The notes beneath the pieces are model-generated. The model was not told the origin of the DNA, ran no database searches, and saw only the letters and a list, made by a program, of their open reading frames with translations. From UHGV virus genome UHGV-0279745: 64,000 nucleotides of DNA; one strand, 5' to 3'. How positions within the stretch are numbered: position 1 is the first letter of the stretch; each line of letters starts with the position of its first letter. Source of the stretch: a virus. Of the stretch, positions 5,798 to 53,015 are shown one piece after another. A program made the position numbers and the translations under genes.

Positions 5798-5881
5798 GTG
5801 TATGTGTGTAGAATACAGTCGAAGTTATCTGAGATAGATTTTATCTTAGTGGACGACTATGTTATTCCTGGAGATTTTAAA

Positions 5882-10986: not shown

Positions 10987-11049
10987 AATCGTTCCTAAAA
11001 TAAGTGAGATAGATATTATCCTACTGAATCAACCTAAAGGAGCATTAAA

Positions 11050-21361: not shown

Positions 21362-22649
21362 GTTCTTAGTAGCGGCATGTAAAGCTGAAGCGTGGCGACG
21401 TCTGGTTTGGCGTATTGCTATTTTTAACATGTCGGTGTTTCCAACAGGACGCGAAGAACCCGAAGCGTTTGATATAACGTATATCGACGGCTTACCGCAT
21501 TATTACGCTGTAGAAGACGGTAAGGGCAGTTGGGAACCGATTACTGACGGCGTAAAGGACCAGGAGCTGTTTGTCCCTGAAGAACAGTTCGAGCTACGCC
21601 CTGACGATTATCCCGGTTTAGACGGTCCTATTCCCACGACAGTAGGACGATACGTTTTTAACTGGATTGTTATCTGGTATGCATTTGGTACACGCTTACC
21701 CTATCTGGCGATTTCACAAAACCCGTTGGAATATCGCAAAGAGATGCATCGGCGTTGTTTAGACCATGAAACCGATGAGCCAGAAAACGAAGGTGCAATT
21801 CGACCGAGTATGATTGAGCGCTTTGTAAGCGGCTTACACGAGCTCGCACCGCTCACGTCAGGTATTGCACCAACCGGTACGTTACGAAGCCTCACGGTGC
21901 ATCCTGATGCGTATAAAATACGTGATGCGTTGCTATTAAAGCATAAGGACGAGTTAGACGATCCTGCCGTTATCGTTAAGATTGAAAAAGCGCTGGATGA
22001 GTTAGACAAAGAGTGGTTGTCGGGTGACCAATCTATTGAGTTTTATAACTCGCCGAAATCGCGGATGCGCCGACGTAAATTAATGCTGATGTACGGTATT
22101 GAATCGTCTTTTCAGGAAGGGGGTCATTATACGCTCATCCCGAACGCATTAGTTGAAGTTGATAAAGCGGGGATGGAAAACCTGGTTGCGAAATTTAACT
22201 CTATCCGTGAAGGTTCGTTCTCTCGTGGTGCGGAAACAGCGAAAGGGGGTGAGCAGGTACGTATTATCCAGATGATTTTCCAGAACCACCGAATCGTCCC
22301 TGGTGACTGTGGAACGAAACTAACGTATCCAGTTGTGATTACCGATGATAACGTAAAACGTTACGTTGGGATGAACGCGATGGTTAATGGTAAACTGACA
22401 CCACTGACTGAGGAATATTTAAAACAGCAGTTAGGTAAAGTGGTGCGGTTACGCCGACCCATCTTATGTCAGTATGGCCACATCGACACCTGCACAGCGT
22501 GTTCGTCTGCGAATAAAGGGGAAGAACCTCGCGCAATCGCTGCGGATATATCCTCGGCGTTCTCTAACGTTATGTCCGTGGCAATGGCCGCGATGCACGG
22601 TAAAGAGACAGTGGTACACGAATTTAATCCATCGATCCACATTACGTAA
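21348..22649 (+). CDS. hypothetical protein
   Basis: Start placed at ATG 21348 with RBS GAGGAGG; overlaps the preceding stop. Confidence 0.55.
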   Translation: MTRFEFLVAACKAEAWRRLVWRIAIFNMSVFPTGREEPEAFDITYIDGLPHYYAVEDGKGSWEPITDGVKDQELFVPEEQFELRPDDYPGLDGPIPTTVGRYVFNWIVIWYAFGTRLPYLAISQNPLEYRKEMHRRCLDHETDEPENEGAIRPSMIERFVSGLHELAPLTSGIAPTGTLRSLTVHPDAYKIRDALLLKHKDELDDPAVIVKIEKALDELDKEWLSGDQSIEFYNSPKSRMRRRKLMLMYGIESSFQEGGHYTLIPNALVEVDKAGMENLVAKFNSIREGSFSRGAETAKGGEQVRIIQMIFQNHRIVPGDCGTKLTYPVVITDDNVKRYVGMNAMVNGKLTPLTEEYLKQQLGKVVRLRRPILCQYGHIDTCTACSSANKGEEPRAIAADISSAFSNVMSVAMAAMHGKETVVHEFNPSIHIT

Positions 22650-35550: not shown

Positions 35551-36822
35551 ATGGCAAATTTCGCAAAAACTCGCGCCGCTCGTGAATCGATGGAAGCGGC
35601 CGATGAAGTAATCGACGGTATCAGCAACGTTGAACCGGCAGAAGAGAACCTGGACGTCCAACTTGCGGACGTAGCATCTATCGACGGTCAGCTCGATCAG
35701 CTGGAAACCGACGGTGAAACCCTGGCTGCCGATACCGAGCGTACTGAAGACGCTATCGAACAGGCGGAAGAAGCCGTTGCTAACGGTGAAGAAATGCCGG
35801 AAGAAGCGGTTGCCCTGCACGAAGTGGCACAGGAATCCATCGCACGTCGTTGGTGCCTGGAACGTACTAAGCTGGCTCGCGAATCCTATCGTCGTGGCCG
35901 TGGTATGACTGCTGCTGCCCAGGAAGGTTGGAAAGAAACCCTGAAAGATCTTTACGATCGTTTCATTCAGTTCTGTAAAGAAGTGATTGCGAAGATCAAA
36001 GACCTGAAACTGAAATATTTCAACGTCGGTAAGACCGCACAGAAACGTGCGAAGAAATATCAGGAAATGCTGCGTAAGCTGGGCAAACAGAAGAAAGATG
36101 AGATCTCTGGTGGCTTTATCACCAAGCTGTCTATCGAAGGTAAATTCGATGCTGCTGGCTCTATCGCTATTGCGAAAGAAGTTACCGCAGGTAAAGCTAA
36201 AGGTTCCATCGCTGTTCTGGAAAAACAAGCTGGTGAAGCTGTGACTGCCGTTACCAAAGGTGACGATGACGCATTCAAGGCAATGCGTGGTGATCAGCCG
36301 GTAGAACTGTTTGGTAAAGCTGCTTCTAAACTGCACACTCTGCCGAACTTTGAAAAAGGTGATGCGTCTAAACTGCTGGCTCTGCCGGGCAACGCTTACA
36401 TTCAGGCTGGTACTAAAGAACTGGCTGGCGGCCACAAGTTCACCGCAATTGCTTTCATGAGCACCGGTGACGCTTCTGACGATAAAGACGTGAAAACTCC
36501 GTCTGTTTCTGAAATGGCTGGTGCTGCTTCTGCTCTGGAAGCGATCGGTAAAGGTTTCGAAGCCGTACTGAAAGATTTCCGTGCTTACGATTCTGAAATC
36601 GTGAAGCTGCAACAGGCTGCTGAGAATGCTGCTAAGGCGCTGAACAACGAAAAAGACGATAGCAAGTGGGATGGCCTGCGTAACGCACGTCAAGCTGCCG
36701 ATTGGTCTGTTAAGAACTACCAGACCCTGAACCGCGCAGTTAGCTATGTTGCTAACACCGTTATTAGCGGTCTGAATGGCTACCTGGGTGCTGGTATCGG
36801 TGCTTACGAAAAATCTAAATAA
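35551..36822 (+). CDS. abundant acidic protein, tandem paralog A (virion/inner-body-like candidate)
   Basis: 423 aa with strongly optimised codons; shares an MANF-K-ARESME N-terminus, a central RKLGKQKKDEISGGFI block and a GLNGYL-AGIGAYEKSK C-terminus with 36905-38170. Confidence 0.7.
   Translation: MANFAKTRAARESMEAADEVIDGISNVEPAEENLDVQLADVASIDGQLDQLETDGETLAADTERTEDAIEQAEEAVANGEEMPEEAVALHEVAQESIARRWCLERTKLARESYRRGRGMTAAAQEGWKETLKDLYDRFIQFCKEVIAKIKDLKLKYFNVGKTAQKRAKKYQEMLRKLGKQKKDEISGGFITKLSIEGKFDAAGSIAIAKEVTAGKAKGSIAVLEKQAGEAVTAVTKGDDDAFKAMRGDQPVELFGKAASKLHTLPNFEKGDASKLLALPGNAYIQAGTKELAGGHKFTAIAFMSTGDASDDKDVKTPSVSEMAGAASALEAIGKGFEAVLKDFRAYDSEIVKLQQAAENAAKALNNEKDDSKWDGLRNARQAADWSVKNYQTLNRAVSYVANTVISGLNGYLGAGIGAYEKSK
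36082..36121 (+). repeat. 40-bp perfect direct repeat, copy 1 (shared with 37478-37517)
   Basis: GGCAAACAGAAGAAAGATGAGATCTCTGGTGGCTTTATCA is identical in both paralogs. Confidence 0.8.
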
Positions 36823-36904
36823 TCATTTAGATTCGTAGTTCCGTACAGTTCTTGAAATAAATCATCAGGGGAACAATACGTTCCCCTTAGAGGAAAAGCT
36901 TAAA

Positions 36905-38170
36905 ATGGCGAATTTCTACAAAAACAAAATTGCTCGTGAGTCTATGGAGTCTACTTCTACTGTAGTTCCAGACGGCATCGAACTGCCAGCAGAATCCGTA
37001 GAAGGCACTCTGGCCGATATCGAGCATGACACCAAACCGATCGAAGCTCTGGACGCTGACGCTGAACTGCTGGCAGAAGACGGCGACGAAACTGACGCTC
37101 AGCTGGATGTTCTGGATGAAGCTCAGGCTGCTGCTGACGGTGAAGGTGCTGGCGAAGACGGTGAAGAACCGATGGACGCCGAAGAAGATATGCCGGACGA
37201 CGCTGCGACTGCGCTGGACGTTGCTCAGGAATCTATCCGTTCTCGTTGGAACTTCGAACACCGTTCTTCTGTTGCTCACGAATCCTACGGTTCTCGTAAC
37301 CGTCGTCAGGTTGCTCGTGAATCCCTGTGGGAAGACATCAAAGCCTTCCTGGGCCGTATTCTCGATTGGCTGAAAGAACAAGGCCGCAAACTGAAAGATC
37401 GCTGGCTGAAATTCCACAACCAGGGTAAATCTATTCAGGCGCGTGCTAAGAAATACGATGAAGTTATTCGTAAGCTTGGCAAACAGAAGAAAGATGAGAT
37501 CTCTGGTGGCTTTATCAAGTCTCTGTCTATCGACGGCAAGTTCGTCGGCGATAATATTCCGAAACTGAAAGGTATCCTTAACCAGGTCTCCTCGTTCTAT
37601 AGCGCTAAGATGCCTGCCATGGCCGCTAAAGCTGCTGAAGTGGTTTCCGATGTTACCAAAGGTAATGGTGTTAAAGTTGAAAAACTGAAAGCCGACTTTA
37701 CCGAACTGTCCAAACAAGACAGTCTCCAAAACTTCAAGCTCGGTAACATGGCGGTGAAAACCGAGTATGACAACGAAGGCGGCTTCAGCTCCACCTTTGT
37801 TGAAGCTGAAAACAGCGTTGAAACTAGCGTGAAAACTCCGTCTGTTGGCGAACTGGCCAAAATCAATGCTCTCTTCAACGAAGTGGGTAAACAGATTGAG
37901 AAAAACGTTCAGGATTATCGTAAAGTCGAAAGCGCGCGTAAAACCTTTGAAGATAATATCGATAAGCTCCTGAAAGAAGTCGATAAAGTTAAGATCGACG
38001 AAAAACCGGAACTGACCGAAGGTGTACGTGCTGCCCGTCGTTTCATCACCAGCGTTAACCAGGGTCTGTCTCTGGGTGAGAAGGTTATTGCTTCTACTCA
38101 GAAACACCTGGCCGGTGGTCTGAACGGTTACCTGAGTGCCGGTATCGGCGCTTACGAAAAATCTAAATAA
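36905..38170 (+). CDS. abundant acidic protein, tandem paralog B
   Basis: 421 aa; paralog of 35551-36822; optimised codons; followed by a strong terminator. Confidence 0.7.
   Translation: MANFYKNKIARESMESTSTVVPDGIELPAESVEGTLADIEHDTKPIEALDADAELLAEDGDETDAQLDVLDEAQAAADGEGAGEDGEEPMDAEEDMPDDAATALDVAQESIRSRWNFEHRSSVAHESYGSRNRRQVARESLWEDIKAFLGRILDWLKEQGRKLKDRWLKFHNQGKSIQARAKKYDEVIRKLGKQKKDEISGGFIKSLSIDGKFVGDNIPKLKGILNQVSSFYSAKMPAMAAKAAEVVSDVTKGNGVKVEKLKADFTELSKQDSLQNFKLGNMAVKTEYDNEGGFSSTFVEAENSVETSVKTPSVGELAKINALFNEVGKQIEKNVQDYRKVESARKTFEDNIDKLLKEVDKVKIDEKPELTEGVRAARRFITSVNQGLSLGEKVIASTQKHLAGGLNGYLSAGIGAYEKSK
37478..37517 (+). repeat. 40-bp perfect direct repeat, copy 2
   Basis: Identical to 36082-36121. 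Confidence 0.8.
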
Positions 38171-38186
38171 TCCCTGATTGTTTAGT

Positions 38187-38235
38187 AAGAGAACCACCCT
38201 GTAATGGGGTGGTTCTCTCTTTTCTTTTTTTTTTC
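38187..38235 (+). terminator. rho-independent terminator
   Basis: Stem AGAGAACCACCC / GGGTGGTTCTCT followed by a 16-nt T-run. Confidence 0.7.
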
Positions 38236-38247
38236 GATTAAAATAAT

Positions 38248-38289
38248 TTTCAGATATATATTACCTAGGTGAGATTACACAGTAATCTC
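38248..38289 (+). promoter_or_regulatory. candidate phage promoter (TATATTAC core) plus downstream inverted repeat
   Basis: 27-nt element TTTCAGATATATATTACCTAGGTGAGA is identical to 46505-46531; TATATTAC at 38257-38264; perfect inverted repeat GAGATTAC-aca-GTAATCTC at 38271-38289; about 68 nt upstream of ATG 38325. Confidence 0.5.
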
Positions 38290-38324
38290 TTTACGACTTG
38301 TTTATTACGTTTAGGAGAAATATC

Positions 38325-38966
38325 ATGAGCCGCATTAATTTAACTGATTTTGTTGATGGTGTTGTGTCTACGGATAAAGGTGTTGTTACGATGGTGGCAC
38401 CGAATAGTAAAGTTGTTACTTTAAATCCGGTAGAACTGATTTCTATTTCTACCTGGTTGCGCTTACTTTCTGGTAAGAAACCTAAAGACCAAGCGAAGGG
38501 TGGCTTATTAGTTGGTACACGTGAGTTTGTTTTCAAAGACATAACCCAAGATAAACTGGACAGCATTGCTAAAGAACTGAACGGCAAGCATAAAACTCGT
38601 GACATCGGGTGTGCCGAATATGACGGAGTAACGTACCATGCGTTTCTTGATAGTCACGTAGCATTGCGTGAAAAAGAAAATGGGATGTACGATTCAGTTT
38701 GTTTCTTTCACTTAATCGCACCAACAGAAAACGAAGCTGTGTATGAAACCGTTGAAAAATCGGCGGAAGCTGTTATGGAAACGGTGTCAGAACTTATAGA
38801 AGGGATGAAAAGAATCCCACGTGTGTTGAAAGTTACTGATGGGGCTTTCGATTGTTTTAAATTATTACCCCTAATAGCTAGTAAAGAATACGAAGATGAG
38901 AACACCTTCGGACTATTCGAAATTAGTCTTTCGGAAGCAGTTGTTACTTTCTTTGAAGATTTATGA
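38325..38966 (+). CDS. hypothetical protein
   Basis: Start at ATG 38325 with RBS AGGAG; first gene downstream of the promoter-like element. Confidence 0.6.
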   Translation: MSRINLTDFVDGVVSTDKGVVTMVAPNSKVVTLNPVELISISTWLRLLSGKKPKDQAKGGLLVGTREFVFKDITQDKLDSIAKELNGKHKTRDIGCAEYDGVTYHAFLDSHVALREKENGMYDSVCFFHLIAPTENEAVYETVEKSAEAVMETVSELIEGMKRIPRVLKVTDGAFDCFKLLPLIASKEYEDENTFGLFEISLSEAVVTFFEDL

Positions 38967-38970
38967 GATA

Positions 38971-39000
38971 AAAAACCCTCTACGGAGGGTTTTATTTTTT
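38971..39000 (+). terminator. rho-independent terminator
   Basis: Stem AAACCCTC / GAGGGTTT followed by a T-run. Confidence 0.6.
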
Positions 39001-39020
39001 CGACCTTTAGGAGAATAGAA

Positions 39021-39572
39021 ATGAATAAATTTAATATCTTAGACGCTGAAGTCGTATCTGAAACCAGTTTACAGCAGGAAATCTTTCGTATTCAGTTTGG
39101 CGATAAAACCCTTATCGTCCCACGTCCGGTAATGATTGGACTGGCTATTTTTATTAACTGTGCGCATTGTAATGGTTCTCAACTCTCCACGCTCACTTAC
39201 AACAATTACGAATTCTATATTCCAGAACACCTGGAATACGATCGTTTCATTGCTTTACGTCCGTTCTACAAGTTTATGTTAGACGCAGGTTATTCTACGC
39301 TGACGAAAACATACATTCGTGATTATTCGAAGCTGGAAACCTTTTACCGCCGTCGCGGTTATCGCGTTCCTGAGCCTATTGACGGTTTTCAAACACGCGT
39401 TGTGTTACTTAAACCGCTAGAAAAAGAACAGGCTTGCTATAAACTTGATATCGAGCAGAAGTTACTGCGCGAGGATTTGTTGAATTTATACAACCAGCTT
39501 TCAGTTGTACCGAAAAACACAGTAGAAAACATTCTACCTGATTACGGAATTAGACAATACCAGGAAGGTTAA
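39021..39572 (+). CDS. hypothetical protein
   Basis: 183-aa ORF with RBS AGGAGA. Confidence 0.55.
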   Translation: MNKFNILDAEVVSETSLQQEIFRIQFGDKTLIVPRPVMIGLAIFINCAHCNGSQLSTLTYNNYEFYIPEHLEYDRFIALRPFYKFMLDAGYSTLTKTYIRDYSKLETFYRRRGYRVPEPIDGFQTRVVLLKPLEKEQACYKLDIEQKLLREDLLNLYNQLSVVPKNTVENILPDYGIRQYQEG

Positions 39573-39574
39573 AA

Positions 39575-39880
39575 ATGAAACTCAAAGCCGATGCGATATG
39601 TGTTGTTAAGTTGCCGGAAAGTAATGTGGTGTACTGCGTAAAACGGCTAGACATTCGATTACTGATACCGAGACTTAATGAACCTGGTTGGAATGGGGAT
39701 TTGATGATTCCACTGATCAGACCACTCCCTACGAACGATGGCAATATAACGCATTTGCATATGGAAGCCAAAGGGCGGTACGTTACCGTTTACCATTTAG
39801 CCGATCAGTACAAAACGAGTCGGTATACCCGAAAAGATTTTATACGCCATTTAAGAGGCTCACTGGAGATAAAGAAATGA
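39575..39880 (+). CDS. hypothetical protein
   Basis: 101-aa ORF; its stop overlaps the DHFR start (ATGA). Confidence 0.5.
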   Translation: MKLKADAICVVKLPESNVVYCVKRLDIRLLIPRLNEPGWNGDLMIPLIRPLPTNDGNITHLHMEAKGRYVTVYHLADQYKTSRYTRKDFIRHLRGSLEIKK

Positions 39881-40413
39881 CAATTACAGTTTCGATGATA
39901 GCTGCTGCTGGGTTGAATAACGAAATTGGGAAAGACAATAAATTACCGTGGCGTATTCCCGATGACTTAAAGAATTTTAAGGCACTTACATCAGGTAAGG
40001 TTATCGTGATGGGAAGCAAGACATGGGAATCGTTAGGGTATAAACCCCTGCCTAATCGTCACCATGTCGTGTTGACGAGAAGACCTGGTGGTGTGCCCGA
40101 AATCGATGGGGTGCTTAACCTTAAGGGTGAAATGGGGTCGATTATTGAATTCCTCAAAACCGAGGTTGAGAAAAAGGGTTATCCTAAAGAAATCTTTATT
40201 ATCGGTGGGGCAGAAATTTACCATCAGGCGTTACCTTACGCGAATAAGATTTACTTGTCACGCGTAGAAGTTAAAGTCGATGGTGCGGATGCGTTCTTTC
40301 CTGAAATCGATCGTAACAAGTTTAGACTGGTTTATAACTTAACGCACGCTTCCAAACCGGATAGCGATGTCCCACGTTGGCATTATCAGATTTGGAAAAG
40401 AGATGGGCACTGA
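39877..40413 (+). CDS. frd: dihydrofolate reductase
   Basis: 178 aa; LPW, VIVMGSKTWESLG, PLPNRHHVVLT, IIGGAEIY and IYLSRVEVKVDGADAFFP match conserved DHFR blocks (compare E. coli VIMGRHTWESIG, IGGGRVYEQ). Confidence 0.9.
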   Translation: MTITVSMIAAAGLNNEIGKDNKLPWRIPDDLKNFKALTSGKVIVMGSKTWESLGYKPLPNRHHVVLTRRPGGVPEIDGVLNLKGEMGSIIEFLKTEVEKKGYPKEIFIIGGAEIYHQALPYANKIYLSRVEVKVDGADAFFPEIDRNKFRLVYNLTHASKPDSDVPRWHYQIWKRDGH

Positions 40414-40712
40414 GTTTGTAACCTTAGAAAAGCTCTTTTTAGGTAGAGTTGCGAAAGGGAAAATAGCACGCTTCACCTGGTATCCTTCTCCTGTAAAGCA
40501 CGCGTTTATACGCCGTTTACATCAAGAGAAAAGCGTCAGGTTGATCTTGATAGTGTTGTTCGAAAACAACCGTGGGCTGTTGATTAACAATCAGCGTTTT
40601 GCGGCAGAGATTTGGGCAACCACATCTGGGGGTGAGGAAGCGTCTGTTGGCTTCGCTAACGATGAGATTATCTTTGAAGGTATACCTTATCTGTTATAGG
40701 TAGGTTAAACGT

Positions 40713-40747
40713 AAAAGGGGACTTCGGTTCCCTTTTATTTTTTTTTT
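40713..40747 (+). terminator. rho-independent terminator
   Basis: Imperfect stem AAGGGGAC / GTTCCCTT followed by a T-run. Confidence 0.5.
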
Positions 40748-40789
40748 CATTTCGCGCCTGTGATATGACTATAACGAAGGAACAAGCCA

Positions 40790-42298
40790 ATGCAACAGTA
40801 TTTTGAAATTCCGTCGTTAGACGCGACCATTCGCAAACCAATAATCGATGGCGTTATACAACGTGTACTTAATGAGTCTGGTATTGATACAGCAGCGGTT
40901 GTTTTCCTCGATGAATTCAATAGCGCCCATCAACCGGATTCTACTTTAGGTGACGGTACTGAAGTAGAGTACAGTTCACCTGAAAAGGTTTACGTTGAAG
41001 TAGAAGAAGAACGTGATGAGTGGGCCAGAATCAATCGTCAGGTTGGTCAGCAGGCTGAACCGTACTTCTTTGAGAACCGTGTCGATCAGGTACGCGCCTG
41101 GCCCGTTAGAACGATGTATAACGTAACAGTAACGTTACGACGTACCAGTGCCTCACGTGATGAGTTATTGCGCTGGACGAACCGTTTAGACTCATTAGTG
41201 GACATGGGCCGTTATTCGACCATGACAGAGTCAGAAGCGTTCTATTATATCCCTAAACCCGCGTTAAAGTTGTTGAATGCCTGCTACGTTGCTGCAGGAA
41301 CACGAGTACCGACGTTTGACGATTTTAAAGCTTATTTGAAAGCGTATTTTACGCCCGACGTATTTCGTGCAGCCAATGTTGCCGGGGGGCAGGAAACCAT
41401 TGCGGTACGTTACGCACCTACGCGTTTAGAAACGGTATATGACGTTCAAACACCGGCTTGGGATAAAGATGAAAACCACTGGGAAGCAACGTTCGTTATC
41501 CGTTTCTCTTATCAGCGCCCTGAAGAGATTGTGGTATCGTATCCGTATATCATCAATCAGACACCACTGCCCGATGAATATTGGCCGGAGATAGATCCTC
41601 CGTGGGTATCTAACGAGGAGTTAGTTTACCGCCATCCACAACAGAAGAATCTCGATTCAACCTGGTGGATTAACGAAACTCGTCAGTATATTCGTCTCCC
41701 GTATTTGTTATCTCCCACGGAACAGTTCCATCGTACGCACTCCCCGCTTAAAGATAAACTCTTACCGATTTTCGGTACAGATGTTGTTTTTGAACCGGAC
41801 AACATGTTATCGCCGAAGGTGATGTCTACGGAAGATTTACCTTACGAATGGAACGAAGCGTTGCTACCGTATATCGAACATTGTCGTGCGATCGACCCGA
41901 CAGGACAGACGGGTGTTTTCCGTATCGAGCTGTTCGAAGAGGGACAGATTATCGAACCGCGTTTCTACCATTGGGAAGGAAATACGTTTTCGCTTAAAGG
42001 TCGTGACCTGAAAGTAAATAAGGGTTATTACTTAACCGAATCGGTCATGTTTGACTGGCGTGGAATGAACCTCTGGCCATTACAGTTATATCCACAGGCA
42101 GCGAAAGTATTAATTGAGTGGTTGTTCCCGAAATGGGACGTTCCTGATTGGTGGTGGGATAAGCCGGTGTTACCGCCGAGTGTTATCGATGACATTAATA
42201 AACTGATTCCGAACGTAGAAGCCCGTGTGTTATTGACGGTGCTGAACTCGACCATTATTACCATGCGAGGAACAGAGAATGCTCAAAGCGAAGCGTGA
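40790..42298 (+). CDS. hypothetical protein (first gene of a coupled five-gene array, possibly structural)
   Basis: 502-aa ORF; RBS GAAGGAA. Confidence 0.6.
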   Translation: MQQYFEIPSLDATIRKPIIDGVIQRVLNESGIDTAAVVFLDEFNSAHQPDSTLGDGTEVEYSSPEKVYVEVEEERDEWARINRQVGQQAEPYFFENRVDQVRAWPVRTMYNVTVTLRRTSASRDELLRWTNRLDSLVDMGRYSTMTESEAFYYIPKPALKLLNACYVAAGTRVPTFDDFKAYLKAYFTPDVFRAANVAGGQETIAVRYAPTRLETVYDVQTPAWDKDENHWEATFVIRFSYQRPEEIVVSYPYIINQTPLPDEYWPEIDPPWVSNEELVYRHPQQKNLDSTWWINETRQYIRLPYLLSPTEQFHRTHSPLKDKLLPIFGTDVVFEPDNMLSPKVMSTEDLPYEWNEALLPYIEHCRAIDPTGQTGVFRIELFEEGQIIEPRFYHWEGNTFSLKGRDLKVNKGYYLTESVMFDWRGMNLWPLQLYPQAAKVLIEWLFPKWDVPDWWWDKPVLPPSVIDDINKLIPNVEARVLLTVLNSTIITMRGTENAQSEA

Positions 42299-43649
42299 TA
42301 AACCGTCTTCTTTCGAACCGGTGGAACGCCCGATCCCTGAGTTGAATAAACCACAAGACGGTGTGAAAGAAACCACGAACGTGGTGACACAACCGACACG
42401 TACAACGGTGACGGATTTAGAGCGTATACCGAAACAGTACCTGATGAAGTACCTGGAAGGGTCTTCCTGGACAGTGGATTTCTTTAATTTCCTGAAAGGG
42501 CGTAATGACGCGAAGAAATTCTTCGATTCGAAGGTACTTACGCCTGACCAGCAAGTAGAGAAAATCATCGGGTTAGAATTGCGGGTTACCACACCGTTAG
42601 ATCGTTCTCAGGATACAACGAACAAAACGTTCACCATGTCTGGTGCCGCAACAATGGCGAACTCGGTGATTCCCAACGAAGGGTGTTTTTTCGTTGCCCC
42701 GATTGGAGACGGACGGTTCGCGTTGTTCAATGTCACGAACGTCGTGCGGATGTCCAATAACAAAATTGCAACGTATAACATTGAATATACGCTGCTGTTT
42801 GAAGTTGATCCAGAAGTTGCAGAAACCATTCGCCGGTGTACGGTCCGTGAGTATTATTACGTTTCTGAACGTGCCTGGACGGGCGGTGATACGTTACTGA
42901 CACCGAAAGAATATCGTGCGTTTTTGAAGGTCGTTGATGCGATTGCAGACATTGAACAGACTTACGTAAAACGGTTTTACGATGGGGAAACGGCAACGTT
43001 GCTTTTCCCGCACGATCGGCACAGCGATGGGTTGCGTAGCCGTGCGTACTACGATGTGTTCTTAGCACAGTTCGTACGCTCTGTAGGCTTACGCACTGTT
43101 GGTAAAGATATTCAAATCTATCCACACCCGCCAATGCGTGTGGAAGATATTGAAACGGTCTGGACAGCGTTGTTAAATCAATCGCCAACGTTCTTAGCGG
43201 ATTACAAACGTGATTCTAGTGTCTGGCAGGTAAAAACCTTCCGTACGATGCAGCATCGAAATTCTGTGACCTGGTCATTAATTTCGGATACCAGATTCTT
43301 TACCGATGAATTAAAACCGGGCTATGGGATGGCGCAACGTTTCCCTGGACAGTGGCCGAAGTGGACGGAGTTTGAACCGGTTGAAGTGGAGAACTATCGG
43401 GGTAATGAAGGTGAATCAATCCCTGCATTTCTACCACTGACTTACGAACCGTATTTGTTAAGCCCAACGTTCTACGAGGGCTCGTACAGTTCGTTATTAG
43501 AATACGGTTTATATCTCTATCTGAATAAACGCCCACTGTCAACGGTAATTGCATTACGGTTGTTTGAAGAAGTTTACCGTTTGCCAAAGGATGCGCAGTT
43601 CTACTATATTCCGATGGTGTATTTGTTGTTACGGTATGCGAGGGATTAA
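42279..43649 (+). CDS. hypothetical protein
   Basis: 456-aa ORF; RBS GAGGAACAGAGA; overlaps the upstream gene. Confidence 0.6.
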   Translation: MLKAKRDKPSSFEPVERPIPELNKPQDGVKETTNVVTQPTRTTVTDLERIPKQYLMKYLEGSSWTVDFFNFLKGRNDAKKFFDSKVLTPDQQVEKIIGLELRVTTPLDRSQDTTNKTFTMSGAATMANSVIPNEGCFFVAPIGDGRFALFNVTNVVRMSNNKIATYNIEYTLLFEVDPEVAETIRRCTVREYYYVSERAWTGGDTLLTPKEYRAFLKVVDAIADIEQTYVKRFYDGETATLLFPHDRHSDGLRSRAYYDVFLAQFVRSVGLRTVGKDIQIYPHPPMRVEDIETVWTALLNQSPTFLADYKRDSSVWQVKTFRTMQHRNSVTWSLISDTRFFTDELKPGYGMAQRFPGQWPKWTEFEPVEVENYRGNEGESIPAFLPLTYEPYLLSPTFYEGSYSSLLEYGLYLYLNKRPLSTVIALRLFEEVYRLPKDAQFYYIPMVYLLLRYARD

Positions 43650-43650
43650 C

Positions 43651-44190
43651 GTGGCTGAAAAACGTAGCGCAGCATTTATGCTGTTTCACAAGTGGGTGGG
43701 GTGGCGTGTCCCTGAATGGACGACGATTTCAACGTACATGTCTCAGGAACATGGGTTGTTCTTACCGGAAGACGAGAAAAAAGCACGCGCGATACTGCTC
43801 AATAAAAAGACTGTATACATGCGACCTTTCGAAGTTGCGGTTTATGCAGAATCAGGCGCAGCATTAGACGTCCACGACCCACATGACGGGATCATCGTGT
43901 ACGGGTATATCATGGAACACTTAGCTGATTGGCTAAATTACATGCAGACCCCACACCTGACAACACGTAAAGTCCCTATGGAGGGCTTGCGTCAGTTTAA
44001 TGCGTTAGCGCGTAAACTGTTCCCGGTAGCGAACCGTTACGGTTACTTTAAGAAACCTGAAGTAACAATGGCGGTTTCCGTACAAGCGTTATTTGGCGAA
44101 GTCCGATTGGAAACAGAACGGCATCAGTTCAACGATACGATTATGCACCGTATTGAACAGATATACCGTAGACGTGGAGGAATTCTGTAA
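43651..44190 (+). CDS. hypothetical protein
   Basis: Start placed at GTG 43651 with RBS GAGGGA; the track's start at 43549 would overlap the upstream gene by 100 nt. Confidence 0.45.
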   Translation: MAEKRSAAFMLFHKWVGWRVPEWTTISTYMSQEHGLFLPEDEKKARAILLNKKTVYMRPFEVAVYAESGAALDVHDPHDGIIVYGYIMEHLADWLNYMQTPHLTTRKVPMEGLRQFNALARKLFPVANRYGYFKKPEVTMAVSVQALFGEVRLETERHQFNDTIMHRIEQIYRRRGGIL

Positions 44191-45509
44191 TGTCGTTTGG
44201 TCGGTTACAGAACATAGCAAACGTGCACATTGCACAAGCGGCGGGATTACCGGCCATCGACTACGTACCCCTTATCACGGTCCGTGGGGTGACGATTGAC
44301 GTTTACAAAACCATGTCGATAATCCATGCCAGTAATTTCGCTCAGGATTTAACGACCATCACGCACCTCAGTGTGGTGATTCCACTGAGCCAGCAACGTA
44401 TTCTTACGTCGTCAGCAGAAGGGGATTTATCAGTTAAAATCCTGATGCGGACAATGAACAAGAAAACCATTGCGCAACTGAACTACCGAGGAATTGTGGT
44501 TAACAACCACGATCCAGATATGGAATCACCTACAATGTTTTTGGGTGAATCTGACCAAAAAGGGTTGGGCGTGGTAACGTTGGAACTGATGGACGAATCG
44601 ATGTGGTTCCTTCGTTGTCGTCAGGTAGGTGGGATTTACCACGAAACCGATGGATTAAGTGTCGTTCGTGCATTACTTGCAGATACGTTACCTACCGGGG
44701 ATGCACCAGAAGGTCAGTTGGTTGGTGTGGAATACGAGGAAGAAGAACAACAGCCTTATCGCGACATTTTGATTCCCGATTCGCAAAGTTTTCTTTCGGT
44801 TTTCGATTTCATTCAGAACCGCTACGGTGTGTATAGCCAAGGATTAGGTGTCTTCTTGTATAAACACCGTTGGCATATCTTTCAACCGTGGGATTCTAAG
44901 AAATTCTCTTCGGCAAAAAAGAAACTGGTGGTAATTAACCTTCCCAGAGAGAAAGTTGCCTATTTAGATAAAACGTGTCACATTGCAGGTGACGTCATTT
45001 ATCTGATTTGTGGTGGCGATGTTCACACCTTCGAAGACAAAGACGCCCTTGCGCTAAATCAGGGAACGGGTTACCGCGTGGGTTCAATCCGTGCCTTAGA
45101 CGGACGTGCAAGTTCTTTCTCTCCAGGCGACGTTTCAGCAACGACGTCAGATTCGTTTGTTTCGGCAGCAGACCCTACACAGTACCCCGGTGGTGTTGTT
45201 AATGCGCCTATTGATCCAAACGAGCACTTCAGCGACACGGATAAGCCTCGTCGTTCTAAGTTGGCTGCCGCCAGAGGGACACTGACCGCAACGACCTGGA
45301 ACCGTTCAGCGTACGGTTTATTGCAGCCGGGTATGGCAGTAAAATATCTGTATGCGAATAATTACGGTGTATACACTCGTTATGGGACGTTGGTTGGTGA
45401 AGTTTTCCAAGCTGCCGTTGACGGTGGTTCGATGGCGTCCCCACAATTTAATACCATTAGTCAATTGACGTTGTGGTTGACTAATGAAAAATTTACAACC
45501 GCTACGTAA
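44190..45509 (+). CDS. hypothetical protein
   Basis: 439-aa ORF; RBS GGAGGA; start overlaps the upstream stop. Confidence 0.6.
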   Translation: MSFGRLQNIANVHIAQAAGLPAIDYVPLITVRGVTIDVYKTMSIIHASNFAQDLTTITHLSVVIPLSQQRILTSSAEGDLSVKILMRTMNKKTIAQLNYRGIVVNNHDPDMESPTMFLGESDQKGLGVVTLELMDESMWFLRCRQVGGIYHETDGLSVVRALLADTLPTGDAPEGQLVGVEYEEEEQQPYRDILIPDSQSFLSVFDFIQNRYGVYSQGLGVFLYKHRWHIFQPWDSKKFSSAKKKLVVINLPREKVAYLDKTCHIAGDVIYLICGGDVHTFEDKDALALNQGTGYRVGSIRALDGRASSFSPGDVSATTSDSFVSAADPTQYPGGVVNAPIDPNEHFSDTDKPRRSKLAAARGTLTATTWNRSAYGLLQPGMAVKYLYANNYGVYTRYGTLVGEVFQAAVDGGSMASPQFNTISQLTLWLTNEKFTTAT

Positions 45510-45541
45510 ATTATGTCGTCCGTAACCTAAAGGATTTGTTA

Positions 45542-46342
45542 ATGAGTAATCTACTTACTTTCAGAATGTCTGGCCAAACGTTAATTCAAATCGACAAGTT
45601 CGAAGAAGAGAATTTTTCGAAACCGTCGAAGTTGTTAGAACGTTGCCTTAATGTTATTCCCGGTGGCGAACAACGCCAGTTGGATTACATCATGGCGTCC
45701 AGTGCTGACAAAACGATTTCTGTTATTTATACCGTAGACGGTGTACAGAATTGTCGCTTATTACCAATCGAAGAAAAAGGGACGTTAGGTCATTTGTTGT
45801 TCCTGCACGCGATCACAACTGCCGTGGTGTCTGGTGCTTTAGAAGCGCAATACGGCTTTGCTTATTGTTACTTCTATGCTCAGAAATTAGCTGCAGCGGT
45901 TATTCCAGGGCAACAAGAAACCTATCCTCAGTATATTGAACGTATTCTCCCTTCACACTTTAGTGAGTCGGAAGACTACGACTTCAATGCGTTTCGTTTT
46001 ACCGTGGTGGGCGAAGCCCGCGATCCTGAATACACAACAGCGGTTCGTGCGGTGGTGCGCTATTCTGTTATTTCTACAGACAGCGGTACATCAAATAACT
46101 TTAATGAAGTGTATCCGGTCTTGCAGTTAGGTCCTTATGTGACTTTCAACAGCTACGTACCATTCAGTTGTCAGCTTGTGGGTCCGCAGGATAACGATTC
46201 TATTCTCCCTGTTGCGGAAGAAAAGTCATTGTTTATTCGCGAATCTGTAGAAGCTATTAGCGATAAGCGCTTTATGATTTCTTCGAAGACGGGCATTAAC
46301 GATCCTGAAATCGCTGTAATGGATAAGATGCAAGGTCTGTAA
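45542..46342 (+). CDS. hypothetical protein
   Basis: Start at ATG 45542 preceded by CCTAAAGGA. Confidence 0.55.
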   Translation: MSNLLTFRMSGQTLIQIDKFEEENFSKPSKLLERCLNVIPGGEQRQLDYIMASSADKTISVIYTVDGVQNCRLLPIEEKGTLGHLLFLHAITTAVVSGALEAQYGFAYCYFYAQKLAAAVIPGQQETYPQYIERILPSHFSESEDYDFNAFRFTVVGEARDPEYTTAVRAVVRYSVISTDSGTSNNFNEVYPVLQLGPYVTFNSYVPFSCQLVGPQDNDSILPVAEEKSLFIRESVEAISDKRFMISSKTGINDPEIAVMDKMQGL

Positions 46343-46346
46343 AAAC

Positions 46347-46390
46347 TTCCCGTTACCTCTATGGGTAACGGGAATACCTTTTATTTATTC
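46347..46390 (+). terminator. rho-independent terminator
   Basis: Stem CCCGTTACC / GGTAACGGG followed by a T-rich tract. Confidence 0.55.
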
Positions 46391-46504
46391 CTAAACGACA
46401 CGCAGAAGTCATTTAACCGTTAAGACGACTAATTACCCTTTAAAAAGAAAATTGCGTCAGAATGCGTTTTAGAGCGTTCTAGAGGGTATATGGATTCAAA
46501 AAGA

Positions 46505-46546
46505 TTTCAGATATATATTACCTAGGTGAGAGTTTACGTAATACTC
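46505..46546 (+). promoter_or_regulatory. candidate phage promoter (TATATTAC core), second copy
   Basis: Same 27-nt element as 38248-38274; TATATTAC at 46514-46521; imperfect inverted repeat downstream; about 64 nt upstream of ATG 46578. Confidence 0.5.
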
Positions 46547-46577
46547 ATTTATCGAATACCTAATTAGGAGTTATATC

Positions 46578-46721
46578 ATGATTTCTGTAAAACACAAAAA
46601 AGCTATCTTCGCTGTTGTTATCGCTGTTGTTCTGGGCTGCCTGTATCTGGACATCGACAAAGGCTACGACACTTGCATTGACAACGGTAATTCCGTTGCA
46701 CAGTGCACTGGTCGCGGTTAA
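46578..46721 (+). CDS. putative small lipoprotein or membrane peptide (47 aa)
   Basis: Not in the ORF track (under 60 aa). RBS AGGAG; n-region KHKK, hydrophobic AIFAVVIAVV, lipobox-like VLGC, three Cys in the predicted mature part; optimised codons; followed by terminator at 46726-46758. Confidence 0.45.
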   Translation: MISVKHKKAIFAVVIAVVLGCLYLDIDKGYDTCIDNGNSVAQCTGRG

Positions 46722-46725
46722 TGTA

Positions 46726-46758
46726 TAAGGCACCTTCGGGTGCCCTTAATTTTTTTAT
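46726..46758 (+). terminator. rho-independent terminator
   Basis: Stem AAGGCACC / GGTGCC(C)TT with TTCG loop, followed by a T-run. Confidence 0.55.
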
Positions 46759-46775
46759 TAATTGGAGCATAAAAG

Positions 46776-47591
46776 ATGATTACCATTAAAGATTATTTTC
46801 CGCGTGGACTGAGCAATGAAAACTTCGTTCCAACTGAAGACATTGCCATCGTAACAGAGTCTAGTGATAAGTCTTTTAAACTCTACTTGAGTACGGCAGC
46901 AGGAAAATCCACTCTTATCCTTCGCGAACCTGAGGTGATAAGCATCTGCTCGTTTGGGGGCGGTGTAGAAGGAACGATTAATTGGTTGAAATCCAGAATG
47001 CATCGTTTGCTTATCGTGAACACCGATCCTGTGATTCGTTTACAGCAATTGAAATCGTTGAATGAAGTTATCGTCGGATTATTGGAACATGAAATGTTCG
47101 GTAATGCTGCGATTGCGGAAGAGATTAAATCTGTAGAACTAATCGAGTGGAGTGATATCGAATACGAACGTGCTGCGTTATTCGCAATGTACGGTGACGA
47201 TAATCCTGTTGTGTTTGCACAAACATTAGATAACGTTACAGTAACAGCGCGCGTATTGTTTGGCTTACAGCGTGTTGAGTTTGAACTGAAACACGTTTAT
47301 GTAAGTAATGCTCCAGAGATGGTGGAAACGTTGACTCGTGCGTTCGCTTACCCGTTAGACGGAGAATGGGAACAGCAGATTAATGAAGCGTTAGGTGCGA
47401 TGCTGTTCTTAGCAGGCACACTAAGGAAAGAAGAGAAATTAGAAGGTCGTGTCTATCCAGAATACGATTTTGTTTGTGAAGAATGTGGAGCACAGTATCA
47501 AATACGTGTTCCTTTAACCGGCCTGACAATCCCGAAAGCCAACGTGCAATGTAAGGAATGTGGTCATGTTCAATACGTAGCGATTAAATAA
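46776..47591 (+). CDS. hypothetical protein with C-terminal CxxC...CxxC zinc-ribbon-like motif
   Basis: 271-aa ORF; RBS GGAG; C-terminus CEECG-(x22)-CKECG. Confidence 0.6.
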   Translation: MITIKDYFPRGLSNENFVPTEDIAIVTESSDKSFKLYLSTAAGKSTLILREPEVISICSFGGGVEGTINWLKSRMHRLLIVNTDPVIRLQQLKSLNEVIVGLLEHEMFGNAAIAEEIKSVELIEWSDIEYERAALFAMYGDDNPVVFAQTLDNVTVTARVLFGLQRVEFELKHVYVSNAPEMVETLTRAFAYPLDGEWEQQINEALGAMLFLAGTLRKEEKLEGRVYPEYDFVCEECGAQYQIRVPLTGLTIPKANVQCKECGHVQYVAIK

Positions 47592-47604
47592 AAGCAACCC
47601 CTAA

Positions 47605-47650
47605 TCCCGAAAAGGATTAGGGGTACACTTTATTTATTTTCGCATTTTCA
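47605..47650 (+). terminator. rho-independent terminator
   Basis: Stem CCCCTAATCC / GGATTAGGGG followed by a T-rich tract. Confidence 0.6.
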
Positions 47651-47667
47651 ACATAGGAGAAAAGTTC

Positions 47668-47826
47668 ATGAAACATGAACAGTTGTTTCAAAGGCTAAAC
47701 GAGTTGTCCGTAAAACAGCTCGAATTTCAACGAAGGGTTAGTGAAATAGCGCAACCAACGTTAACTCAGCCCAAAGTTGCTTATCCAAGAAACACCCAGT
47801 TGATAGTTGAAAGGAGAAGTAACTGA
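47668..47826 (+). CDS. hypothetical small protein (52 aa)
   Basis: Not in the ORF track; RBS AGGAGA 7 nt upstream of the ATG; followed by a hairpin cluster. Confidence 0.35.
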   Translation: MKHEQLFQRLNELSVKQLEFQRRVSEIAQPTLTQPKVAYPRNTQLIVERRSN

Positions 47827-47833
47827 TAAAAAA

Positions 47834-47922
47834 CAAGGGGTGTGTCAGCACCCCTTTTCTTAGCTTTAACTTTTCCGAAGAGAAGTTAAAGCAAGGTACG
47901 CTGCACCAACAGCGTACCTTTT
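47834..47922 (+). terminator. cluster of three consecutive stem-loops (terminator or structured RNA)
   Basis: Hairpins AAGGGGTG/CACCCCTT (47835-47856), CTTTAACTT/AAGTTAAAG (47864-47891) and GGTACGCTG/CAGCGTACC (47895-47918) followed by TTTT. Confidence 0.45.
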
Positions 47923-48114
47923 ACAGCACCATTACGGAAACGTAATGGATTTCTTTAATCACCCTACAAAGAGGGCTTATACCATGAACAATGGTTACTA
48001 CTTTACTGACAAAATGCTTGCAGAACAGAGTGCAACAGAGACTGGCGGAACAGTCTCTGCTGTACGGTGTCAACACATAAAGTTGTTGACGTTTTTACAA
48101 CATTACGAAAGGTA

Positions 48115-48282
48115 ATGAAAATGAACGAATATCAAATACAGATGTTCAATACCGCGATGCGAAATCGTGAAAAACAAATTCAGTTTAACCAACGCATGGA
48201 CGAATATGTTCGTCTCGGCCTCGTTGCGGCACCGAAAACGGTTAACAACCACAATGTTCACCAACCACCTGTAAGGAGATAA
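48115..48282 (+). CDS. hypothetical small protein (about 55 aa)
   Basis: ATG at 48115 or 48121 with GAAAGG upstream; the track's GTG-extended version is 48067-48282; followed by a hairpin at 48299-48319. Confidence 0.35.
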   Translation: MKMNEYQIQMFNTAMRNREKQIQFNQRMDEYVRLGLVAAPKTVNNHNVHQPPVRR

Positions 48283-48424
48283 GTTACTAACTAATAAAGG
48301 GGGTGTTGCTACCACCCCCTGCTTAGTTCGGTAGTTGTTTTCCATTCATAATTAATAGTCTTCTGTTTTTTTTTGCTTTCCGAGACGCATAAGGGGTTAT
48401 AGGGGGAGCCGAAGCTCCCCAGAC

Positions 48425-49987
48425 TCAAAAGAGTTCGTCACCCATGCCGCCGGTAAATACGTTAATCGACGAGGCTGTTACAGTTTCTTCTTTATCACAA
48501 TCCCATGGCAAAATGCCAACATCACGGAAAGGTATTACAGTATAATGATAAGCTTCTTTGGTATCAATAATTGTACGGTGTTTACCGCGTTGTACTTCTA
48601 AATAACTGTGTCCGCTGACGACACGTTTGTTAAAATACATCTCACCGTCAGCTTCGTTGTCTAAGCTAGAGCAGTTGTCGTAAAGACCACGACCAGGTAA
48701 GCTCTTACAGAAACTTGCTGGGTCGAGTGCTTTTAATTTTTTGCCTTCTGGTGAGATTTGGTGTGGTGCTAAGAGGAAACCACGATTACGTACCACTTGG
48801 ATGTTTCGCGCGATACGATAAATTTCTTTAATGTCACTACCCGCAATACCGTTACCGTGCCCTGCTTTGCTGATAGTACCGAAATAGTCTCCGCGTATTC
48901 CAGCTACATGATAACCTCGACGTTTTAAATCTAAAATCAAATCATTCAAATAGTGAATTTTAAAATCGGAGTTTGTGTGCTTTTGGAAAATATACTCCCA
49001 ACCGTTTGCCCGCATTTTACTACAGAGGTAATCTGACATTTGTGCATTGTGTAGCGCTTTTTCTTCGTCAGTTGCCGTTTCAGGTGCAACCATTACCGGA
49101 GCTGTACCTTCAAAGTGTCCGTAAAGTGCTTGATACGCGTAAGCCAAGTTAACATCTAATTCGTTTTCTAAACTTAAATCCAGAATAACCGGCTGTAAGT
49201 CACCTTTAACATTCGCCATCACCTTTTCTGGGGTGTTGAATACAGGTATGCTAATAGAGAGCAATAAACTGAATAATGACTTACAGTTAAAGGGCAGTGC
49301 AGGCATCAGCCAGAGTTCTTCGGTGATCCCTTTGTTACAGCCAAGCATTTGGTTAATTGCTTTCCACCCCGTACGTAACCCGTTCCCCGCTGCTTTCTTA
49401 CTGATAGAGTCGAATACATGTACGAAGGGTGCTTTATTGTCAGTAATCAATTCCCCTACCAGAGAAGGAATCTTATTATGAGAGCGTTCACTGAACGTGG
49501 ATAAGGTATCCTTAAGGTCGTTGAGCGCCGTTTGTAAATCAACACGCGTTTCAGTGCCGTTCAGTGCGCCTAACGTACGACCCAATTTTTGTTTCAGTTG
49601 TACGCCTTGAATAGCTTGACGTAACTGAAAGTAGTATTGTGCTACTTGGCGATTAAGATGCTCGATGCGTGCTTCTGGTTCTTCTGGAATATCATCTTCC
49701 AGGAATTTGGTAATCGTATCGTATAGAGGACGTATTTGCGTAGTGGCCAGTTTCAAACGTTTCATGACGTTTGTGTGGTCGTAAGGCATACCGCCGTCTA
49801 TGATGGATGTGATGATATCCTTGATTTCGACGAGGGCGGCACGTTCGTCACCTTCTTCTGCGTAATCAGGAAGCTTAGCCTCTAACAGCACTTTTCTTAT
49901 GATGTCGTGGTCCTTTTCAGGATCGGTCAGAAGACTTTCAGCGTATAATGTGGCTAAGGCGGTTATCAACATCATTTTGTTATTCAT
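48425..49987 (-). CDS. hypothetical protein (520 aa, function not recognised)
   Basis: Long minus-strand ORF set among + genes; no nucleotide-binding or catalytic signature that I can assign with confidence. Confidence 0.6.
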   Translation of the reverse strand: MNNKMMLITALATLYAESLLTDPEKDHDIIRKVLLEAKLPDYAEEGDERAALVEIKDIITSIIDGGMPYDHTNVMKRLKLATTQIRPLYDTITKFLEDDIPEEPEARIEHLNRQVAQYYFQLRQAIQGVQLKQKLGRTLGALNGTETRVDLQTALNDLKDTLSTFSERSHNKIPSLVGELITDNKAPFVHVFDSISKKAAGNGLRTGWKAINQMLGCNKGITEELWLMPALPFNCKSLFSLLLSISIPVFNTPEKVMANVKGDLQPVILDLSLENELDVNLAYAYQALYGHFEGTAPVMVAPETATDEEKALHNAQMSDYLCSKMRANGWEYIFQKHTNSDFKIHYLNDLILDLKRRGYHVAGIRGDYFGTISKAGHGNGIAGSDIKEIYRIARNIQVVRNRGFLLAPHQISPEGKKLKALDPASFCKSLPGRGLYDNCSSLDNEADGEMYFNKRVVSGHSYLEVQRGKHRTIIDTKEAYHYTVIPFRDVGILPWDCDKEETVTASSINVFTGGMGDELF

Positions 49988-52890: not shown

Positions 52891-53015
52891 TCTATTATTT
52901 TTTGGATAGATATTATTAAAGGGAGACGGCCAGTTGGTTTTAAAGGAGTATGTATGGAAAAAATACAGTTTAAACTAAAGATATGTGTCATCATTAAAAT
53001 TTAGCTTGGGTTCCC

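Follow-up and report, generated by a model that had tools for sequence, protein, structure and literature searches.

A repeated, probable phiKZ-type early promoter, apparently followed by a 5'-terminal RNA hairpin, in an uncultivated SPN3US-like jumbo phage

Introduction

Two identical sequences of 27 nt, some 8 kb apart and each placed between a terminator and a start codon, raise the question of what enzyme, if any, reads them and what the inverted repeat next to them is for. They lie in a 64,000-nt stretch of viral DNA (UHGV-0279745), which as a whole is referred to here as the window. A preliminary description, made from the letters of the window and its open reading frames, had proposed a promoter-like element whose core, TATATTAC, was likened to the early-promoter consensus of phage phiKZ, and had left it undecided whether the inverted repeat is an operator or a hairpin in the 5' untranslated region. 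We have examined the element in the window, in related genomes and in metagenomic contigs, and have compared it with phage promoters and leaders of known type.

Results

The source of the window

The window is collinear with the 18.5-83.4 kb region of Salmonella phage SPN3US (Seoulvirus), at about 35-83% amino acid identity per gene. Its genes include those for a phiKZ-type major capsid protein (PF25620, E = 4e-209) and for an RNA polymerase subunit with an Rpb2 domain, and homologues of three SPN3US RNA polymerase beta-subunit genes (11050-13287, 13287-15386 and 21330-22649; 70-75% amino acid identity). Synteny, capsid and polymerase homologues together identify the source, at the level of sequence, as an uncultivated SPN3US-like jumbo phage of the phiKZ lineage (Chimalliviridae). 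Fragments of a 225-kb IMG/VR contig (IMGVR_UViG_3300029126_000001) agree with the window at 98.8-99% identity, and IMGVR_UViG_3300045988_113438 does so at 96%; among 50,697 phage records there was no species-level relative, the best match being at about 74% nucleotide identity.

In the SPN3US record, NC_027402, the RefSeq locus-tag numbers apparently run opposite to the gene numbers of the literature, which matters for comparison with published work on SPN3US. Presumably the original gp number is 266 minus the RefSeq number, in which case the major head protein, ACQ60_gp191, would be gp75.

Limits and architecture of the repeated element

The window contains two exact copies of the 27-mer TTTCAGATATATATTACCTAGGTGAGA, at the positions first described (38248-38274 and 46505-46531); both are on the + strand. 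No further match was found in the window at up to 3 mismatches, nor was there any in 100 dinucleotide shuffles (chance expectation, none). The 8-mer TATATTAC by itself is no more frequent in the window than chance predicts (2 occurrences against 1.9 expected), so the significance of the repeat rests on the long identical match. Its distance from the genes is also as first given: ATG 38325 and ATG 46578 lie 68 and 64 nt, respectively, from the T of TATATTAC. Both upstream terminators were found, copy 1 following one directly and copy 2 following one at about 120 nt (Table 1).

What needed correction was the length. Judged by conservation, the functional element is about 38 nt, from -34 to +4 relative to the predicted transcription start, rather than 27 nt. 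The blocks of copy 1 are ATT/AAA near -30, TTTCAGAT near -20, TATATTAC at -14 to -7 (38257-38264) and TG at -1/+1, the TG being invariant among promoter copies. Across 43 distinct copies the onset of conservation is abrupt at -34 and nothing is conserved further 5', these more distal positions having been outside the search pattern that gathered the 43 copies; and when three diverged orthologous loci are compared, the longest block identical among them is the promoter. A duplication or mobile-element origin was considered and rejected: identity ends at -34 and at about +6, and such promoter-sized limits argue against it.

Table 1. Features of the two transcription units and their surroundings (window coordinates)
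Feature	Position	Strand	Details and basis
Intrinsic terminator directly 5' of promoter copy 1	38188..38232	+	14-bp stem (38188-38218) and T-run; terminator scan
Early-promoter copy 1, class I, -34 to +4 (probable)	38237..38274	+	sequence conservation, consensus match
Predicted start G38271 and 5'-terminal hairpin	38271..38289	+	GAGATTAC-ACA-GTAATCTC; perfect, 8 bp, 3-nt loop
First gene of unit 1, 213-aa hypothetical protein	38325..38966	+	30% identity over 88 aa to SPN3US ACQ60_gp211
Terminator-like hairpin between first and second genes of unit 1	38972..38993	+	terminator scan
Further unit 1 genes: phrog_12369, phrog_9893, DHFR, 110-aa ORF	39021..40699	+	family matches
Terminator ending unit 1, before virion structural genes	40711..40738	+	terminator scan
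Terminator after ORF 45536-46342, ~120 nt 5' of copy 2	46347..46374	+	12-bp stem; terminator scan
Early-promoter copy 2, class I, -34 to +4 (probable)	46494..46531	+	TATATTAC at 46514-46521
Predicted start G46528 and imperfect 5'-terminal hairpin	46528..46546	+	by eye 6 pairs including one G-U, one internal mismatch
47-aa lipoprotein-like ORF, phrog_8574	46578..46721	+	lipobox-like VLGC
Terminator directly after the 47-aa ORF	46729..46744	+	GGCACC-TTCG-GGTGCC and T-run; terminator scan

Recurrence in related genomes

In the complete SPN3US genome the 16-mer ATATATATTACCTAGG has eight matches with no more than 3 mismatches. They are without exception on the + strand and 50-95 nt 5' of an annotated start codon, against a chance expectation of 0.14-0.25 per 50 kb. 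A PWM scan of the same genome set seven near-identical copies, termed class I, apart from several weaker ones. Looser sites in SPN3US number at least 14 in all; strong or loose, the copies are effectively confined to the + strand, those judged real are on the coding strand, and nearly every one is just 5' of a gene.

For IMG/VR, a 14-mer scan gave more than 120 mostly chance matches on unrelated contigs and was too unspecific, so the exact 20-mer GATATATATTACYTAGGTGA was used instead. Its 45 occurrences lie almost only on contigs longer than 100 kb, and among them is a third copy for the window's species, on a 225-kb contig and beyond the window, which itself holds only two class I copies. One match, on a 115-kb contig, has neither the blocks 5' of the core nor the hairpin, and was set aside as chance.

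BLAST with the 38-mer against the 50,697 phage records returned matches almost only in jumbo chimalliviruses—Salmonella, Erwinia and Serratia phages, Pseudomonas phages OBP and 201phi2-1, Goslar and PCH45—at about six intergenic places per genome. The orthologue of copy 1 in SPFM4/SPN3US lies between the second internal-head-protein gene and the next gene, 100% conserved amid diverged flanks; at the site orthologous to copy 2 the element is likewise conserved while its flanks have diverged. Recurrence of the motif upstream of genes elsewhere had been named beforehand as one of the observations on which a promoter reading would stand or fall, and related genomes supply it.

Correspondence to the early promoters of phiKZ

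The phiKZ 'consensus early promoter' is printed as tatattaaaaaaaatttaagatgTATATTACaaatgtg / tatattaaaaaaaatttaagatgtatattacaaatgtg (Table S1, PMC12676376). Window positions 38234-38271 are identical to it at 29 of 38 positions, in register and ungapped, the identities including ATTAAAA, TTT.AGAT, TATATTAC and the terminal GTG. The first 50 kb of phiKZ hold seven TATATTAC sites, every one of them on the + strand, intergenic and 42-80 nt 5' of a gene; among these genes is PHIKZ054, at whose primary TSS dRNA-seq has placed the early-promoter motif (PMC8244752). The proposal that TATATTAC is the core of the phiKZ early promoter is thus borne out by the published consensus, by the 38-nt match and by the distribution of the phiKZ sites. 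When the seven phiKZ sites, eight of SPN3US, one of 201phi2-1 and the two of the window are aligned, a common -30/-20/-10/TG architecture emerges, and the features of a phiKZ-type promoter are all present: an ATT/A-run near -30, TTTaAGAT near -20, TATATTAC near -10 and TG at the start.

Early promoters of phiKZ number 28-32 per genome, are AT-rich and have been assigned to the virion RNAP (Ceyssens et al. 2014, as cited in PMC7598289, PMC8244752 and PMC10914365), and transcription of this phage is reported to be independent of host RNAP (PMC7598289). According to the same review, bioinformatic searches can recover the early motif in every jumbo phage that encodes RNAPs, as an AT-rich conserved block of about 10 nt centred near -10 that must be read by the virion RNAP (PMC7598289). 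The context of the window copies corresponds: the genome has phage multisubunit RNAP genes and a phiKZ-like capsid; the copies are many, intergenic and co-oriented with the downstream gene, as seen in SPN3US and in the third copy of the phage's own species; and the genes behind them encode hypothetical proteins, DHFR and a 47-aa peptide and are separated from the structural genes by terminators.

The consensus match, the intergenic and co-oriented recurrence and the near-restriction to jumbo phages lead together to a phiKZ-type early promoter. Taken as a whole, the explanation that each copy is an early promoter of the phiKZ/SPN3US type, read by a phage multisubunit RNAP and carrying a 5'-terminal stabilising hairpin, is very probably correct. 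The polymerase would most likely be the virion-packaged enzyme injected with the DNA, and both units would presumably be transcribed early. With TATATTAC placed at -14 to -7, the predicted +1 is an invariant G (G38271 and G46528), which is also the last base of the published phiKZ consensus; these predicted starts could be off by 1-2 nt, since the assignment rests on the end of that consensus and on the review's 'centred at about -10'.

The inverted repeat as a probable 5'-terminal RNA hairpin

The inverted repeat claimed at 38271-38289 is indeed perfect, and the 30-nt segment from G38271 folds at -8.2 kcal/mol. Its counterpart after copy 2 is imperfect, RNAfold giving a weak 4-bp stem (-2.7 kcal/mol). 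To place these two within the family we assembled 39 distinct copies, taken from the SPN3US genome, from Erwinia phages and from contigs of IMG/VR, and folded 28-30 nt of each, beginning at the predicted +1. The stem begins at the predicted +1 in 29 of the 39 and at +2 or +3 in seven; three have no stem. The mean MFE, -5.4 kcal/mol, is lower than that of shuffles (-1.9; Wilcoxon p = 3e-8) and of the reverse complement (-3.8; p = 1e-5), and G-U pairs are commoner on the sense strand (28/249) than on the antisense (6/220).

Stems vary among the copies—the seven class I copies of SPN3US carry seven different ones—and loops range from 3 to 11 nt. MAFFT-aligned ungapped leaders yielded no RNAalifold consensus, because loop lengths differ. 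We built a covariance model on seven copies of equal geometry and realigned 24 distinct sequences with it: in this alignment, which is fitted to structure, 94% of cells are paired, as against 74% in shuffled sequences (0/500) and 35-57% with slid partners. Compensatory changes on both sides are present at five of the eight pairs, many of the copies being orthologues rather than independent events.

Stems that differ in this way, together with the strand-asymmetric wobble pairs, favour an RNA hairpin over a DNA operator. We favour reading the inverted repeat as an RNA hairpin at the predicted 5' end of the transcript; of the two possibilities first offered, the evidence is for the 5'-UTR hairpin, and the differing stems and the G-U enrichment of the sense strand speak against the operator. 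A comparable hairpin accompanies two of the seven phiKZ early-promoter sites, which makes it a feature of the clade and not part of the promoter class. An Rfam search of 37.5-48.5 kb found nothing relevant. No homologue of the phiKZ RNase E inhibitor Dip was detected in SPN3US or in the window, which is weak evidence.

The transcription units and their genes

The terminator at 38188-38232 closes a group of upstream genes homologous to SPN3US internal head proteins. The 213-aa protein encoded first in unit 1 is, judged by its place and similarity, a fast-evolving positional orthologue of SPN3US ACQ60_gp211; replacement of the gene after copy 1 was considered and rejected, the downstream gene being a diverged orthologue. 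Dihydrofolate reductase (PF00186) lies within ORF 39688-40413.

The 47-aa lipoprotein-like ORF behind copy 2 exists as claimed. It begins MISVKHKKAIFAVVIAVVLGC, with a basic N-terminus, a hydrophobic stretch and a VLGC that fits the lipobox pattern, has a signal peptide and carries three cysteines besides that of VLGC; by tblastn its mature part is conserved in 13 records, all of them Salmonella/Erwinia jumbo phages. We can only speculate that a small lipoprotein made early might act in superinfection exclusion or envelope modification. The terminator directly after this ORF is followed by a 271-aa ORF and then by a bidirectional terminator. Both units consist of early-type genes set between blocks of virion genes.

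Terminator-like hairpins are three times commoner in 36500-48500 than in shuffles (35 vs 11.5) and sigma-70-like promoters are rarer (11 vs 18). This combination is consistent with a genome punctuated by terminators that makes no use of host promoters.

Further motifs near early genes

A second, looser promoter-like class, class II, with AGATAGATATTATCT followed by GTG or GGG, is present on the + strand at 5832-5846, 7243-7257, 11007-11021 and about 52904-52918. Its -20/-10 layout is that of the 27-mer class, from which it departs by a G at -13, a T at -7 and a short UTR that lacks the 5' hairpin. One copy lies 38 nt 5' of 11050-13287, the homologue of an RNA polymerase beta subunit. In SPN3US the class has 14 copies or more, on the + strand in effectively every case, and one of them precedes the orthologous RNAP gene (28969). 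From their sequence these are probably further early promoters, of lower stringency, and if they are counted as such the total comes nearer to the 28-32 of phiKZ.

A box, TCGAC(C/T)(A/T)T, lies 8-16 nt 5' of the Shine-Dalgarno sequence in leaders of early-unit genes, at 39000-39007 in the window and in degenerate form at 38293-38299 and 46552-46558. It is found in five of the seven class I leaders of SPN3US and in four other gene leaders there, and TCGACYAT has a genome-wide strand bias in that phage (21 vs 7).

Three tandem 10-bp repeats, GCGTCAGAAT, GCGTTTTAGA and GCGTTCTAGA, occupy 46454-46483, that is, -74 to -45 of copy 2. The orthologous SPN3US site has kept them, as have two Erwinia-phage loci 5' of class I promoters, and they occur once away from a class I promoter, at about 137.55 kb in SPN3US. 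Their helical phasing suggests a putative protein-binding array.

Discussion

In the mechanism that we propose, the phage's own multisubunit RNAP, most likely the virion enzyme injected with the DNA, would recognise the element from -34 to +4 and begin transcription at G38271 and G46528. At the head of each RNA, 18-21 nt would fold into a hairpin whose stem starts at +1, and the terminators upstream would insulate the units from transcription of the late structural genes. Unit 1 would thus express the hypothetical protein, two more of no known function, DHFR and the small ORF, and unit 2 the 47-aa lipoprotein-like peptide. By analogy with known leaders, the role of the hairpin is probably to shield the mRNA 5' end from decay by 5'-end-dependent host RNases.

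Two of these analogies bear on stability. In the T7 class III promoter and phi10 leader the transcript has a stem-loop from +1 that is credited with mRNA stabilisation; there, as is predicted here, a long and near-invariant promoter for a phage RNAP is repeated through the genome and followed by a +1 stem-loop, but the T7 enzyme is a single-subunit RNAP, made after infection rather than injected, and the sequence is unrelated. The 5'-terminal stabilising stem-loops of E. coli mRNAs such as ompA, reportedly the subject of work by Emory, Bouvet and Belasco in 1992, leave no or very few 5' nucleotides unpaired, with sequence free and pairing needed, and the present hairpin, as predicted, would be like them; the difference is that here the 5' end is predicted and stabilisation would follow by analogy. 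A third system, phage N4, injects a virion RNAP that reads conserved early promoters with a small hairpin (PMC4496689), and we suppose such an arrangement for the present phage too. In N4, however, the hairpin is a DNA structure 5' of +1 and is itself the recognition element, whereas the repeat described here is downstream (+1 to about +20), varies in sequence and loop, and has wobble pairs of RNA type. The stem of 5-7 bp with a 3-nt loop 5' of +1 that distinguishes hairpin promoters of the N4 type is absent.

With the early promoters of phiKZ, those of the window have in common that they are multi-copy and intergenic, precede small non-structural genes, and belong to a phage with two multisubunit RNAPs. 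The enterobacterial clade differs in being far more uniform, the 20-mer being exact across 45 copies in more than 10 genomes; in having C at -20 and CTAGG at -6 to -2; and in the 5'-terminal hairpin that then follows, for which the phiKZ sites examined offer a counterpart in two of seven cases.

How do other readings of the same data fare? Use of the element by host RNAP as a sigma-70 promoter has practically negligible probability: TATATT could serve as a -10 box, agreeing with TATAAT at 5/6 positions, but no acceptable -35 hexamer accompanies it, and we rejected this reading when a scan (16-18 nt spacer, at least 9/12 matches) reported neither site. Sigma-70-like sites are moreover below chance in the region, and the near-invariance over about 38 nt, which extends to positions irrelevant to sigma-70, is common to phiKZ, a phage independent of host RNAP (PMC7598289). 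A DNA operator, through which a repressor would shut off early transcription, would find support in the classical operator position of the repeat, +1 to +20, and in the palindrome CCTAGG within the promoter, were it not that CCTAGG reads CTTAGG in 18 of 43 copies, that stems varying so widely within a single genome (seven different in SPN3US) provide no common recognition sequence, and that the wobble pairs are distributed so unevenly between strands (28 vs 6). Stem diversity and strand asymmetry led us to reject the operator, whose likelihood we put close to nil. Recombination offers another view of the repeats, in which they would primarily be cassettes for shuffling gene modules and only secondarily promoters. 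The model for it is the PeSL (promoter-early stem-loop) cassettes of T4-type phages, reportedly described by Arbiol et al. in 2010, where an early promoter and a stem-loop are likewise repeated between small early genes; the cassettes there carry host sigma-70 promoters and mark recombination breakpoints, whereas synteny is intact here. Identical repeats of 27-38 nt do flank small, fast-evolving genes, and each comes as a package of terminator, promoter and hairpin. Yet synteny with SPN3US is complete on either side of both copies, the gene that follows copy 1 has diverged without being replaced, and identity ends exactly at the promoter limits, so that we consider a primary role in recombination very improbable.

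An attenuator deserves somewhat more attention, although it too is unlikely. The hairpin and the U-rich tract behind it would then act not as a stabiliser but as a promoter-proximal attenuator, cutting transcription off early with a very short 5'-UTR RNA as its product, or as the target of antitermination. Positions +19 to +22 are T-rich in 22-31 of the 43 copies, terminators lie inside both units (38972-38993 and 46729-46744), and 201phi2-1 has eight sRNAs derived from 5' UTRs by premature termination, for which antitermination has been suggested (PMC11512511). The stems, however, are short and AU-rich, with the mean of only -5.4 kcal/mol given above; the U-run is just 3-4 nt and partly paired with G1/A2; the terminator scan called neither 38271-38300 nor 46528-46560, which lack the G+C-rich stem and the five or more U that it looks for; and a terminator at +1 to +25 would block every early gene behind it.

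A phiKZ-type early promoter with a stabilising 5'-terminal hairpin is accordingly the reading that we retain. The promoter class was already anticipated by published bioinformatic surveys, and what is new here is the copies in an uncultivated SPN3US-like phage. The conserved 5'-terminal hairpin and the wider leader cassette to which it belongs, of which the jumbo-phage transcriptome papers searched make no mention, are a modest and possibly new detail. A bolder proposal is that, for the strongest early promoters of the Salmonella/Erwinia branch, promoter, compensated hairpin, U-rich tract and a TCGAC(C/T)AT box some 10 nt 5' of the Shine-Dalgarno sequence form a fixed leader cassette which gives early mRNAs a specific fate beyond stability and replaces Dip. 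We regard this as a long shot; were it true, the mRNAs might leave the early-infection vesicle, be translated preferentially or be protected from an RNase that the phage encodes, and the cassette would stand in for the RNase E inhibitor of phiKZ, which is undetectable in SPN3US.

The analysis provides a precise promoter map with predicted starts for the window's phage and for SPN3US, of about 7 class I and about 14 class II sites. Such a map can be used in annotating early genes, in designing early-expression cassettes for enterobacterial chimalliviruses and in defining recognition by a virion RNAP that is still unpurified. The near-invariance of the element across genera points to a polymerase-promoter pair under very tight constraint, and the covariation of the hairpin suggests that the Salmonella/Erwinia-type clade protects the ends of its early mRNAs by structure.
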